A DNA stretch of 38,029 bases, from UHGV virus genome UHGV-0335973; one strand, given 5' to 3'. Shown here piece by piece: positions 4,280 through 8,107 of this stretch. The translations under genes were made by a program, and so were the position numbers. Origin of the DNA: a virus. Under the pieces are notes generated by a model that was given only the letters and a program-made list of their open reading frames with translations, did no database searches and was not told the DNA's origin. Position 1 is the stretch's first letter. The number at the start of each line of letters is the position of its first letter.

Positions 4280-4897
4280 GTGAGCTTAGTAGCTGATTTT
4301 TCTCATTACTATAATGGTACATGGATTGCTAAACGAGCAGGTAATATCAACCTTCCATGTTTTGTGATTGGTGTTGAGCAGAGCGGTAACTTCCGCAGTG
4401 ATGACTTCTCTCACGAAGCAGAACAGGCTCTGTACTTTGTTGTAGAGCAGTGGTACAAGAACGAGCATGGGAATCTCCGAAACACTACGATGAATATTCC
4501 AGTGTTCGACCCAACTTTGATTCTTGAATCACCTGATGTTGGTTATCTGTTCCATAACGGTAACACTGTAAGCTGGACTCATATCAACCCTGTTCGTCAG
4601 AGAGCGAAGGGTTTGATGGGTAACAAGATCCGAAACGCTCCGGGGGTTGGTCGTTCTATCTCTGGTGAAATGGTTTACAGTCTATTCAATCCTGAATTCG
4701 AAGGATTGGTTACTCGTTATATTTATATCAACCCTACGGATGGTAAGGTGCACTATAAAGGTGCACTGGTAGGACAAGTAGATCTGGAAGCGCCTCGTGA
4801 CTCTTACGGTCAGCAACCAATGCGACTTCTGGAACACTTTCATCACATTTCTGAAAACCTTAGCAATTATAATATTACGTTGGTGGATTCGTTATGA
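4280..4897 (+). CDS. hypothetical protein (205 aa, GTG start)
   Basis: ORF with AAGAGG SD; overlaps next gene (ATGA). Confidence 0.5.
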   Translation: MSLVADFSHYYNGTWIAKRAGNINLPCFVIGVEQSGNFRSDDFSHEAEQALYFVVEQWYKNEHGNLRNTTMNIPVFDPTLILESPDVGYLFHNGNTVSWTHINPVRQRAKGLMGNKIRNAPGVGRSISGEMVYSLFNPEFEGLVTRYIYINPTDGKVHYKGALVGQVDLEAPRDSYGQQPMRLLEHFHHISENLSNYNITLVDSL

Positions 4898-5997
4898 CAA
4901 CTGTAGCGCAAACTTTTGGATATCGAGAAGGTCGTTTAACTGAGGCGCATAGTTCAATTGCACTTCAGTGCGGTGTCGGTATTGAACTTGAACTCGAAGG
5001 TTCCGACCATATCGAAGCAGATATGTGGGATTGTACAGAGGATGGTTCCCTGCGTAATGGTTGTGAAATGGTATGTTCACGGCCTTACAACGGACAGGAG
5101 TTGTTAGACGCTATCAACAACCTGAGTGAAGCAGTAGCTGAATCGCACGCCGAGGGGACTTGGCGTTGCTCTACTCACGTTCATATGGATATGAGGGATG
5201 CTGATAGTAATATCCTCAAGAAAACCATTCTCGCTTGGACCTTCTATGAAAAGATGTTGTTCAAGTGTTCAGGCTACCACCGTTACCGTAGCAACTTCTG
5301 CCCTGCTTTTGCAGTGGTACAAGCACAGGTAATGAATGCCTCTGACGCATTTAACTACGACGATGAAGAGTTCTTCAACCGTCTGGTTCGTTCATGGGAT
5401 AAGTACACATCCCTGAACCTTCTGCCACTTGCCCAATACGGTTCGATTGAGTTCCGTATCAGTGAGCCTAAGTGGAAACGTGGTCAACTTCTCAATCTGG
5501 TTAACCGCTTCTTAATGTTGAAGAAGCTGGCTTTAGATAACGCAGAGATGAGCAATGATCAGTTTATTGAGCATTTAAATACTGTAAGATTTGCCCCAAT
5601 GCTTCCTTACCTTCCTCTGGATTACAATCTGGATGAATCGGATTTGCATTCAGGCTATTGTATGGCCCGTGATGTTTTGTATTGTCGTTCTCATGAAGTA
5701 GAACAGTCTGGTCGTATTCGTTTACGTCGAACCAACTCCAACGGAGAAGTTCTTGTTGACCTACGCCATATCTCAGACTTCTACGGATTCCTTGGATATG
5801 TTCGAGGGAACGCTAACAACTTGTACCAAGAGATTCTGGTTATGCTCCGTACAACTGATCTATCTACTGTACGATCTGCACCAGAGCAACGTATCCGTGC
5901 TATTTTTGACTTACTACGTGAGTCTGGTCACAGTGATAGCAATATCACAGGGTACATTCCAGACCATCTGGAAAATCAGTTAGAGCAAGCGCTGTAA
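4894..5997 (+). CDS. amidoligase (Amidoligase_2 family)
   Basis: GVGIELELEG...EDGSL..GCEMV, CSTHVHMDM, YTSLNL...GSIEFR motifs typical of the family. Confidence 0.65.
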   Translation: MTTVAQTFGYREGRLTEAHSSIALQCGVGIELELEGSDHIEADMWDCTEDGSLRNGCEMVCSRPYNGQELLDAINNLSEAVAESHAEGTWRCSTHVHMDMRDADSNILKKTILAWTFYEKMLFKCSGYHRYRSNFCPAFAVVQAQVMNASDAFNYDDEEFFNRLVRSWDKYTSLNLLPLAQYGSIEFRISEPKWKRGQLLNLVNRFLMLKKLALDNAEMSNDQFIEHLNTVRFAPMLPYLPLDYNLDESDLHSGYCMARDVLYCRSHEVEQSGRIRLRRTNSNGEVLVDLRHISDFYGFLGYVRGNANNLYQEILVMLRTTDLSTVRSAPEQRIRAIFDLLRESGHSDSNITGYIPDHLENQLEQAL

Positions 5998-6076
5998 TCA
6001 ATGGGTGCCTCTGACAAAGGGGCACAATTTAAAGGTTAATTAGATGAAAGGGTTTACCCTTCAGGTGGATTAGAAA

Positions 6077-8107
6077 ATTTGTGGCATCGTATTAGCTGGC
6101 GGTAATCTGTCAAGCACTGATTTAGACGTATTTAACCAACTCTTTTATGCTGGGGTATTCCGAGGACAACATTCCTCCGGTATCTTTGGTCAGCGTAAAA
6201 GTACTAAGGAAGTCTTCACTTATAAAGAAGCTCTTCCTTCTTTCGCATTCATCCTACAAGATGAGTACAAGAAGCACACCACTGGTGAAACAGCTTACAC
6301 TGTAGCACCTTCATGGATTGTTGGTCACAGCCGTCATGCAACGAAAGGTGCAGTTAACGCCAAGAACGCCCATCCTTTCCAACATGGTAACATCACTCTG
6401 GTTCATAACGGAACCTTGATGGACCAAGATCTGTTACCTGACAGCAAAAACTTCGAGGTAGACAGTGAGAACATCTGCCACTCTATTAACACTATTGGTG
6501 CAGCAGAAACTATTCAAAAGCTGGATGGTGCTTTCACCTTAATCTGGCATGATGCTTCTGATAACCGTCTTCATATCATCCGTAACGAAGAGCGTCCATT
6601 CCACCTCGCACGTTGTAACAGAGATTGGTTTGGTGCTTCTGAAGAAGACATGTTGATGTGGATTCTGAAGCGTTCTAGATCTCACAAGAACCGTATTGAT
6701 GAGCATTTTGAATGTAAAGTTGGTACAGAGTATATCTTTGACATGTCAAACAACAGCATGACTCTGGTTGAAGAGGTCGCCCACGAGCTTCCGGTTTTTA
6801 CGGTAGCCAATCGTTGGGGCAGTTATTACTCGAACAACTACAGCCAAAGCAACTATCAAAGTTCCTCAAAAAGCAATACAAGCAATCCTTACGACACGAA
6901 GCCGGGAGTGACAGCGGCAGACGTTCGTCGAAGAAACGCAGTGGTAAGTCAAAACAAAATCGCAAGCGATCGAAACATTGACATTCGCCGCGATATGACT
7001 GTGGAGATCACTCCGCATGAGTTCGTTCCTTATGCAACTGCTGGTGCTGTTCCTTCTCGTGGTAAGATGATTGGTTATATCTACGATGAGAAGTCTCAAG
7101 AGTACATCGAAGGTGATGTTCATAACGTAGATATTAAGGCTTATCAGGATGCACTGAAAGACCCTAAAATTATTTACCGTGGGACAGTATCCTGCATCTC
7201 CGAAGTTAATGCTATGGTTCGTTTAGTGATCACAGCCGGTCGTTTTGTTGACCCATCTCTGGAGAAAAAGGAGTCTGAGTCAACTACTGCTGACTTCGAT
7301 GATGATATCCCTTTTGATATGAATGATAGTTTCGTCAACAAGAATGGCGTTACTATCACTCGTAAATTCTGGGAAGCACACTCTCATGGCGATTGTGGTG
7401 GTTGTGACAAGCACATTGACTGGAAGGATGCACCTAAAGCAGTCTTCGCATATCAGTGCTACTGGCATCCTGAATGTCTGGAAGGTTTGACTAAACCTAA
7501 AGAGGAAGAAGAGGAGGAGACTCCTATTGGTGTTTGTGAAATCTGTGGTGAAGTTAAAACAGAAAATGAGTTCGATGATGAACTTAGTCGTCTTCGTGGT
7601 GAAGATATCTGTAAAGTCTGCGCTGTAGATGTAAAGAAGAAAGTATCTAATGCTACAATCAAAGATGGTTATGTCTGGATTAAAGCAACAGATACAACAA
7701 ACGCCCGTCGTCCTGAATTTGCTTTACGTGTAACTGAAGATATGATCGGTCGTATGACTGTATTACCTTCCTCAGCGAAACAGACAGGCATCACTCTGGA
7801 GGATGTTGTTGATGCTTATGTTGAGAAACGTAGCAACAGTATTTTTGCAATCTCAACTAAGCCAAAAAAGGAGGAACCTGCTGAGAAAGCAGGTGTGTTT
7901 CCTGAATCACGAACAGCTCTCCGCAAAACTGTTGTTAGCTTCGACGGAAACCGAAGCACTGACTTCACCAAAGCCATGTGGTCAACCCTCGGCTACTGCT
8001 CAGAGTGTTTTAAGCAGATTCCGTGGCGCGATGCTGAAAGTTGTACGCTTGGTTCTATGAATCAAGTTTATTGTAATTCTCCTAAATGTTCATTGAATAG
8101 AGGTTAA
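6077..8107 (+). CDS. class II glutamine amidotransferase-like Ntn hydrolase with C-terminal Cys-rich (zinc-ribbon-like) extension; start codon non-canonical (ATT proposed)
   Basis: in-frame CGIVLAGG...GHSRHATKGAVNAKNAHPFQHGNITLVHNGTL resembles GlmS/PurF N-terminal domain with Cys1 nucleophile; Cys codon at 6080 lies 2 codons after in-frame TAG; AGGTGG SD 8 nt upstream of ATT 6077; track ORF 6416-8107 would lack the catalytic domain. Confidence 0.55.
   Translation: MCGIVLAGGNLSSTDLDVFNQLFYAGVFRGQHSSGIFGQRKSTKEVFTYKEALPSFAFILQDEYKKHTTGETAYTVAPSWIVGHSRHATKGAVNAKNAHPFQHGNITLVHNGTLMDQDLLPDSKNFEVDSENICHSINTIGAAETIQKLDGAFTLIWHDASDNRLHIIRNEERPFHLARCNRDWFGASEEDMLMWILKRSRSHKNRIDEHFECKVGTEYIFDMSNNSMTLVEEVAHELPVFTVANRWGSYYSNNYSQSNYQSSSKSNTSNPYDTKPGVTAADVRRRNAVVSQNKIASDRNIDIRRDMTVEITPHEFVPYATAGAVPSRGKMIGYIYDEKSQEYIEGDVHNVDIKAYQDALKDPKIIYRGTVSCISEVNAMVRLVITAGRFVDPSLEKKESESTTADFDDDIPFDMNDSFVNKNGVTITRKFWEAHSHGDCGGCDKHIDWKDAPKAVFAYQCYWHPECLEGLTKPKEEEEEETPIGVCEICGEVKTENEFDDELSRLRGEDICKVCAVDVKKKVSNATIKDGYVWIKATDTTNARRPEFALRVTEDMIGRMTVLPSSAKQTGITLEDVVDAYVEKRSNSIFAISTKPKKEEPAEKAGVFPESRTALRKTVVSFDGNRSTDFTKAMWSTLGYCSECFKQIPWRDAESCTLGSMNQVYCNSPKCSLNRG

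Follow-up and report, generated by a model that had tools for sequence, protein, structure and literature searches.

A glutamine amidotransferase gene that most probably begins with ATT

The virus genome UHGV-0335973, a stretch of 38,029 nucleotides (nt) that we refer to as the window, belongs to a phiEco32-like podovirus (Kuravirus, Gordonclarkvirinae), and its region from 5600 to 6700 matches about 70 Escherichia coli and Shigella phages at 96 to 98% identity. Here we analyze the start of one of its genes, the homologue of phiEco32 gp83 (6077-8107, on the plus strand like all features described below), which encodes a class-II glutamine amidotransferase (GAT-II) and which is, in all probability, translated from an AUU codon. 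Including this ATT (6077-6079), the gene has 676 codons, comprising the GAT-II domain and about 440 further residues, and its stop codon lies at 8105 to 8107. The protein reads CGIVLAGG from the TGT at 6080 to 6082, the codon of the predicted catalytic N-terminal cysteine of an N-terminal nucleophile (Ntn)-type amidotransferase, and C1 and G2 are invariant in both family alignments.

Several small features are packed directly upstream. A nine-codon open reading frame (ORF), MKGFTLQVD (6044-6073), lies in the same frame as the enzyme gene, is preceded by AAAGG 8 nt 5′ of its ATG, and ends in the TAG at 6071 to 6073. Within it are a small hairpin (6045-6063; −6.1 kcal/mol in RNAfold), whose core consists of AAGGG (6048-6052), the loop TTTA, and CCCTT (6057-6061), and, directly 3′ of the hairpin, the Shine-Dalgarno sequence AGGTGG (6063-6068), 8 nt before the ATT. 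The in-frame TAG is part of a conserved spacer, ATTAGAAA, and is separated from the ATT by 3 nt, the AAA at 6074 to 6076. The positions that a sequence-only reading of the window had given for the upstream ATG (6044-6046), the TAG, ATT, TGT, AGGTGG, the hairpin (6048-6061), and the first canonical in-frame start after the TAG, TTG 6416, all proved exact.

The same reading had assigned the protein to GAT-II, and profile searches bore this out. Pfam GATase_6 scored 55 bits (cutoff, 27) and GATase_7 27.4 (cutoff, 25), and the profile matches in the PDB included GlmS, PurF, and AsnB. In the alignment, the Cys, which is position 1 of the family profile, coincides with residue 1 of mature E. coli PurF (1ecb) and, in human GFAT, with residue 2. 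By this alignment, the phage enzyme resembles PurF, GlmS, and AsnB in having an N-terminal Cys nucleophile that would be exposed by removal of Met, and it differs from them in its own, uncharacterized C-terminal part of ∼440 residues.

To locate the start, we sampled homologues in two draws from IMG/VR made by protein similarity alone, which yielded 152 loci that fell into 80 clusters at 70% identity. At each of the 152 loci, a start codon immediately precedes the Cys codon; by cluster, it is ATG in 65, ATT in 10, ATC in 1, and TTG in 4. Cultured relatives in Grimontviridae and Zobellviridae likewise read ATG-TGT. Since the homologues carry their ATG at this very codon, the ATT sits at the start codon position. 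ATT or ATC is thus found in ∼14% of the lineages of this enzyme family, about one in seven. A second non-ATG solution within the family is TTG, which directly precedes the Cys codon in ∼5% of lineages (L085/L139, L145/L151, L161, L178, and L286, the cultured Citrobacter phage CVT22); no endonuclease was found near the TTG-start loci sampled.

In every ATT lineage, there is no ATG, GTG, or TTG between the nearest upstream in-frame stop codon and the Cys codon. When the window was compared with Suseptimavirus and Nieuwekanaalvirus, codons 1 to 113 showed mostly third-position substitutions (22/13/63 at the three positions versus SU7) and no stop codons. On this comparative evidence these codons are translated, and the protein cannot start at 6416, an outcome that the sequence-only reading had named as a refutation. 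Its favored proposal, Shine-Dalgarno-directed initiation at AUU, is supported by the homologous ATG at the same codon, the lack of any canonical alternative, and the coding signal in codons 1 to 113. We thus infer, with high confidence, that the gene is translated from AUU 6077.

This start is strongly conserved. Across 99 related phage records, the 53-mer from 6036 to 6088 is identical in 69 and carries one or two mismatches in the other 30, and the ATT is kept in 99 of 99, so that, judged by this comparison, it is not a sequencing error. Both ATT and TAG are retained in SU7, ECBP2, KBNP1711, BUCT695, and phiEco32, whose sequences we read, and this, with the near identity of the 53-mer in all 99 records, also removes the earlier suspicion of an error at the TAG. 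Where the sequences read contain a single mismatch in the 53-mer, it is a synonymous GGC/GGT exchange in codon 2, that of G2. A canonical ATG before the Cys codon of related genomes had been named beforehand as a sign of error here; such an ATG is indeed present in distant relatives, whereas the close relatives have ATT without exception, and the ATG of the homologues marks the position of the start rather than an error.

Among seven representatives of three genera (Kuravirus, Suseptimavirus, and Nieuwekanaalvirus), 162 of 400 aligned columns vary, whereas none does from 6030 to 6084; the next longest invariant run is 11 nt. This 55-nt run encloses the upstream ORF, the hairpin, the Shine-Dalgarno sequence, the TAG, the ATT, and the TGT. 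The nine-codon ORF is limited to Gordonclarkvirinae and Aeromonas phage BUCT695, the latter with the peptide MKGLTLQAD; other ATT lineages are without it.

The ATT start itself is not new, having been annotated before in the phiEco32 GenBank record (2008) and its RefSeq copy (phi32_83), in SU10, and in Bas93, but our literature search found no paper that discusses or tests a phiEco32-type ATT start. At least seven public records (SU7, ECBP2, KBNP1711, VPp1, 275E43-1, Klyazma, and Asterion; L003-L005, L283-L285, and L287) drop the catalytic Cys. Because gene callers disallow ATT and ATC, the shortened coding sequence starts at a downstream ATG or GTG, with loss of 9 to more than 50 codons (in SU7 and ECBP2, at an ATG 27 nt downstream), and the error is systematic. 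Taken alone, the ATT start therefore matters mainly for annotation, although expression constructs made from the shortened records would be dead.

A recurring initiation module and its association with homing endonucleases

The arrangement seen in the window recurs in other lineages in a constant order: a small hairpin, a Shine-Dalgarno sequence, an A/T-rich spacer of 7 to 9 nt, ATT or ATC, and TGT-GG. A hairpin of 5 to 7 bp ending right at the Shine-Dalgarno sequence is present at 28 of 30 distinct ATT/ATC loci, its position being constant while its sequence differs by lineage. Over the 32 nt before the Shine-Dalgarno sequence, the mean folding energy is −6.0 kcal/mol at the 30 ATT/ATC loci versus −2.1 kcal/mol at 91 ATG loci (Mann-Whitney, p = 1e-10). 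Other lineages carry GGAGG(A) or GGCGG(A) in place of AGGTGG with the same spacer, and the architecture in the window is that of VPp1, Klyazma, L107, L181, and others. The exact 21-mer GG[A/T/C]GGATTAGAAAATTTGTGG precedes amidotransferase genes in Kuravirus, BUCT695, IMG/VR contig L019, and at least six metagenome lineages, even though the catalytic domains of the proteins that follow it are only 28 to 38% identical. The metagenome scan used the exact motif, so its examples are motif-selected.

The module does not appear to be a general ribosome-site or operator motif, since the hairpin AAGGG-TTTA-CCCTT and GGATTAGAAAA each occur only once in the window. A search of IMG/VR for ATG, ATC, or ATA versions of the class-1 motif before amidotransferase genes gave nine extra matches, all due to chance. 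AUU is known to give 6 to 8 times less expression than AUG, and hairpins flanking the translation initiation region stimulate expression (PMC3592434). We conclude that hairpin, Shine-Dalgarno sequence, and AUU constitute a functional initiation module under strong constraint, in which the hairpin, whose role we deduce from its position and from this precedent, and the strong Shine-Dalgarno sequence probably offset the weak codon.

In the metagenome contigs L105, L107, L108, and L114, an HNH_3 homing endonuclease (Pfam) is encoded directly upstream of the amidotransferase gene, and in L100, L107, and L114 the upstream ORF (endonuclease ORF) ends at the same TAG as that in the spacer of the window. 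To avoid the bias of a motif search, we searched IMG/VR with the endonuclease alone and found cultured phages in the same way. All eight IMG/VR loci with the endonuclease directly before the amidotransferase gene have a non-ATG start (ATT in six, ATC in two). Among cultured phages with the endonuclease, VPp1 and 275E43-1 have ATT, Klyazma has ATC, and UFV-P2 has ATG; NV1, a relative of UFV-P2, has no endonuclease and an ATG start. ATT or ATC thus occurs in 11 of 12 endonuclease-adjacent genes versus a 14% background, and this endonuclease was found upstream in none of the 65 ATG clusters. In a rough protein tree, the ATT lineages and the endonuclease lineages are scattered among ATG lineages.

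A close comparison is offered by Vibrio phages VPp1 and VpJYP1, whose sequences flanking the junction on either side share 97% identity. VpJYP1 reads aaatt ATG TGT GGA ATT (…aaattATGTGTGGAATT…), and VPp1 reads aaatt ATG gtatagttt ATG, followed by the endonuclease, TAA, a hairpin (cccagc/gctggg), and ctaaggtgaaccgtt ATT TGT GGA ATC, with …ccgttATTTGTGGAATC… at its right junction. Alignment of the two (VPp1, L283 785-805 and 1212-1258; VpJYP1, L288 640-720) shows that a cassette of 464 nt lies exactly between the ATG (codon 1) and the TGT (codon 2). In VPp1, a copy of the old start persists as an ATG at the left end; together with the old ribosome site, it now begins an ORF of two codons, ATG-GTA-TAG, whose end is separated by 3 nt from the endonuclease ATG. 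The element appears to borrow the translation signals of its host gene. The enzyme gene has a new hairpin, Shine-Dalgarno sequence, and ATT from the right end of the cassette.

A second cultured pair also differs in the presence of an endonuclease. Klyazma has the endonuclease and ATC, and Asterion has ATT and no endonuclease; downstream the two are 94% identical, and both carry the same hairpin and Shine-Dalgarno sequence. That Asterion lost the endonuclease while the module stayed is the most economical reading, although this pair alone is also compatible with the module having come first. BUCT695 carries the same 46-nt element as the window, with two differences, directly after two out-of-frame endonuclease fragments; the catalytic core is missing from these, and the N-terminal fragment scores 25.8 bits. 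In L107, L114, L191, L192, and L193, the octamer ATGTGTGG or TTGTGTGG lies 30 to 45 nt upstream of the endonuclease start. Searches by tblastx of the long gaps upstream of endonuclease-free ATT genes (L062, L126, L177, and L180) revealed no endonuclease remains.

Two further observations concern the occupants of this site. L100 and L105 have near-identical enzyme genes and identical flanks, but the slot holds HNH_3 plus AP2 in L105 and a 163-residue ORF with no Pfam match in L100, as if mobile genes had replaced one another at a single site. We also considered the nine-codon ORF as a vestigial endonuclease C terminus (…QED* versus …QVD*); the likeness is suggestive, but we do not claim it, as the BUCT695 fragment ends at a TAA before the ORF.

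Flanking sequences and the rest of the gene

Upstream of the module, the gene for an amidoligase homologous to phiEco32 gp84 (4894-5997; Pfam Amidoligase_2 and the phi32_84 annotation) ends only 79 nt before the ATT. As summarized from Iyer et al. (2009) in PMC10580990, the amidotransferase belongs to a phage gene cluster of amidoligase, ATP-grasp, and COOH-NH2 ligase genes whose product is unknown. A stem-loop lies 3′ of the amidoligase stop codon (6005-6025; GUGCCUCU / GGGGCAC, RNAfold), and its arms covary between genera (GTGCC..GGCAC versus GCGC..GCGC). No T run follows it, a terminator scan did not call it, and without a T tail it is unlike a classic terminator.

The sequence AATGTA, the consensus of the phiEco32 gp36-dependent middle and late promoters (PMC12276001), is found a short distance 5′ of this gene in Grimontviridae, in BUCT695, and in three IMG/VR relatives, the positions being ∼4003-4008 in L006 and ∼25 to 30 nt before the start in L007-L009 and L025-L027. 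At the matching place the window has AAAGGT (6031-6036), and transcription of the enzyme gene may differ between the two groups. Scans for sigma-70 promoters and terminators gave nothing relevant on the plus strand near the element, and an Rfam scan of 5900 to 6250 gave two subthreshold chance matches and nothing more. A long-range fold of 5995 to 6110 was rejected: its z-score was only −1.96, and the alternative hairpin that would hide the Shine-Dalgarno sequence is broken by both BUCT695 substitutions.

Residues ∼240 to 675 of the enzyme (6800-8104) have no Pfam match and contain several Cys-X2-Cys pairs (for example, CGGCDKH…HPEC, CEICGE…CKVC, and CSECFK…), which may be zinc-binding modules; the homologues in L019, L100, and L106 end with similar Cys pairs. 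In phages myPSH1131 (H101) and 172-1 (H113), the match to the N-terminal domain is broken into two parts, suggestive of a frameshift or small insertion in the gene.

Origin of the module and comparison with known systems

In our model of initiation, the ribosome would bind AGGUGG (6063-6068), which would position the initiator tRNA at the AUU, 8 nt further on; the product would start with formyl-Met-Cys-Gly-Ile. Deformylase and methionine aminopeptidase would then strip the Met and expose the Cys1 nucleophile, by the same route as in the ATG-TGT homologues. As to its origin, comparison with other phages shows the module as the right-hand end of an HNH homing endonuclease cassette whose insertion point is the ATG|TGT junction; the cassette appropriates the old ribosome site and supplies the enzyme gene with a replacement site and a non-AUG codon. 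The endonuclease would have been lost in the phage of the window, with the module as the remainder. We consider this combination of AUU initiation, module, and cassette origin the best explanation overall and a probable one; for the window in particular, the balance tips only slightly toward a scar left by the right end of a lost cassette.

Several observations weigh against these conclusions. A search of the six-frame translation with the endonuclease profile detected no endonuclease or fragment in the window, and the left-end copy ATGTGTGG or TTGTGTGG is absent from 5990 to 6080, so that for the window the scar reading leans on BUCT695 and on analogy. The 55-nt run is invariant while 40% of the neighboring columns vary, which is unexpected for a mere scar and points to a present function, one that could exist even if no endonuclease was ever there. 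In UFV-P2, the endonuclease lies upstream (L282, 801-1223), yet the gene begins with ATG and the hairpin is missing, one exception in 12. Most class-1 examples came from the motif search itself and form a biased sample, and the protein tree was built by neighbor joining from very divergent sequences.

The protein was detected by mass spectrometry in SU10-infected cells with 9 peptides, but an N-terminal sequence is not among the data of that paper, in which the expected mass is 63.8 kDa (PMC4281155). This mass is close to the calculated size of a 563-residue, TTG-started form, and N-terminal peptides may thus have been outside the database searched. The N-terminal peptide of the 676-residue, AUU-started form would be CGIVLAGGNLSSTDLDVFNQLFYAGVFR. 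No ribosome profiling was found in the literature.

Why the codon should be ATT or ATC is a separate question, for which we put forward a favored answer tentatively, as a possibility rather than an expectation: the codon would be an immunity mark, as an ATG would rebuild the target of the endonuclease. The HNH enzyme would recognize ATG|TGTGG and the following bases, where conservation in these genes is highest. The one base free to change would be the third of the initiator (G to T or C): it is invariant in the targets, yet its exchange leaves the mature protein unaltered, since the initiator residue is cleaved off in every case. A selfish element would thereby force a near-cognate start on its host gene, with the hairpin and the strong Shine-Dalgarno sequence as compensation. 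If this is true, the ATT of Kuravirus is a fossil of an insertion, possibly kept as protection against such endonucleases in mixed infections. We found nothing in the literature on a homing endonuclease linked to a start codon and immunity.

Alternatively, the ATT module might be kept purely for the level of expression, or for a response to IF3 as in infC, with the endonucleases as incidental visitors and no scar in the window. Such tuning fits the strong constraint on the 55-nt island in endonuclease-free phages, and nine of the ten ATT lineages in the unbiased sample are indeed without the endonuclease. E. coli AUU starts (infC and pcnB) limit or regulate expression (PMC3592434), and since Cys must be residue 1, the start is immovable and a change of codon is one of the few controls of output. 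This explanation, however, leaves aside the excess of ATT and ATC in endonuclease-adjacent genes, and in the VPp1/VpJYP1 pair the switch from ATG to ATT arrives together with the cassette. It would also be odd, if low output alone were selected, to pair ATT with the strongest possible Shine-Dalgarno sequence. We regard it as unlikely.

Reinitiation concerns how the AUU is reached, and we rate it as quite unlikely to be the main route. Ribosomes that enter at ATG 6044 would terminate at UAG 6071, be held by AGGUGG, and restart 3 nt on. The geometry of stop, 3 nt, and AUU is that of the thrS-infC junction (UAA-GGU-AUU), where de novo initiation and reinitiation share about equally (PMC3592434). 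The invariant island includes the upstream ORF with its AAAGG and the TAG; in L100, L107, and L114, the same TAG terminates an upstream ORF of full length; and coupling is common in the family, with many ATG-type homologues overlapping their upstream gene by 1 to 13 nt. However, L102, L108, and L109 have an identical spacer and ATT with no ORF ending at the TAG, and across the ATT/ATC loci the gap from the endonuclease stop to the enzyme start varies from 1 to 41 nt. Moreover, the ATG of the upstream ORF is partly within the hairpin stem, and both BUCT695 differences are nonsynonymous (F to L and V to A). Given the lineages that share the spacer and lack the ORF, ribosomes ending the nine-codon ORF may add to initiation at the AUU, but coupling is not the general mechanism.

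Far less probable is the proposal, also made by the sequence-only reading, that translation starts at ATG 6044, reads through the TAG, and yields a 12-residue propeptide removed autocatalytically. In its favor, the upstream ORF shares the frame of the enzyme gene and is kept among close relatives, and a propeptide has a precedent in Bacillus subtilis PurF. Nevertheless, the homologues begin with M-C and have no propeptide, no tRNA gene and hence no suppressor was found in the window, and TAG terminates three long ORFs there. In other TAG-AAA-ATT lineages, the TAG is preceded either by no ORF, as in L102, L108, and L109, which share the GGATTAGAAAATT context, or by the 150-residue endonuclease that ends at it, leaving read-through unsupported. 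A +1 frameshift or hop at GAT-TAG of the prfB or T4 gene 60 type was rejected, as the upstream ORF and the enzyme share a frame and there is no landing codon. Finally, although several GenBank records annotate a shortened coding sequence, a sequencing artifact, a decaying pseudogene, or translation solely from TTG 6416, which would omit the catalytic Cys, has a negligible chance of being correct, given a junction within 2 mismatches in 99 independent records, purifying selection with third-position bias and no stops in codons 1 to 113, and retention of the invariant catalytic residues.

Among known systems, E. coli infC is similar in its AUU initiator, its good Shine-Dalgarno sequence, and an upstream stop codon exactly 3 nt before the start (thrS UAA GGU AUU; PMC3592434). 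It differs in that its AUU serves IF3 autoregulation, a loop of which there is no indication here, whereas the AUU of the phage family has a hairpin 5′ of the Shine-Dalgarno sequence, occurs in ∼14% of lineages, and moves along with a mobile element. E. coli pcnB, as cited from Binns and Masters (2002) in PMC3592434, is similar in that a near-cognate start holds down the level of an enzyme. It is, however, a single chromosomal case in which neither a conserved module nor a tie to a mobile element is seen. The phage family, by comparison, amounts to a natural repeated experiment on how phages achieve initiation at a near-cognate start codon.

Free-standing homing endonuclease genes of phages, such as the seg and mob genes of T4 that spread by intronless homing, usually lie between genes. 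The elements described here resemble them in comprising a small HNH_3 ORF (Pfam) beside a highly conserved stretch of a host gene, in the existence of near-identical phages with and without the element, in decayed copies, and in different ORFs occupying one slot (L100 versus L105). We found no prior report of the recurring module and its tie to HNH homing endonucleases, nor any description in the literature of a cassette between codon 1 and codon 2 with a non-AUG replacement. In contrast to the T4 type, the element of this phage family sits between codons 1 and 2, keeps the old ribosome site for itself, and gives the host gene a non-AUG start in return. It thus provides a concrete, testable example of a mobile element that reshapes the translation signals of the gene it invades, and VPp1/VpJYP1 and Klyazma/Asterion are cultured pairs that allow direct testing of this idea.

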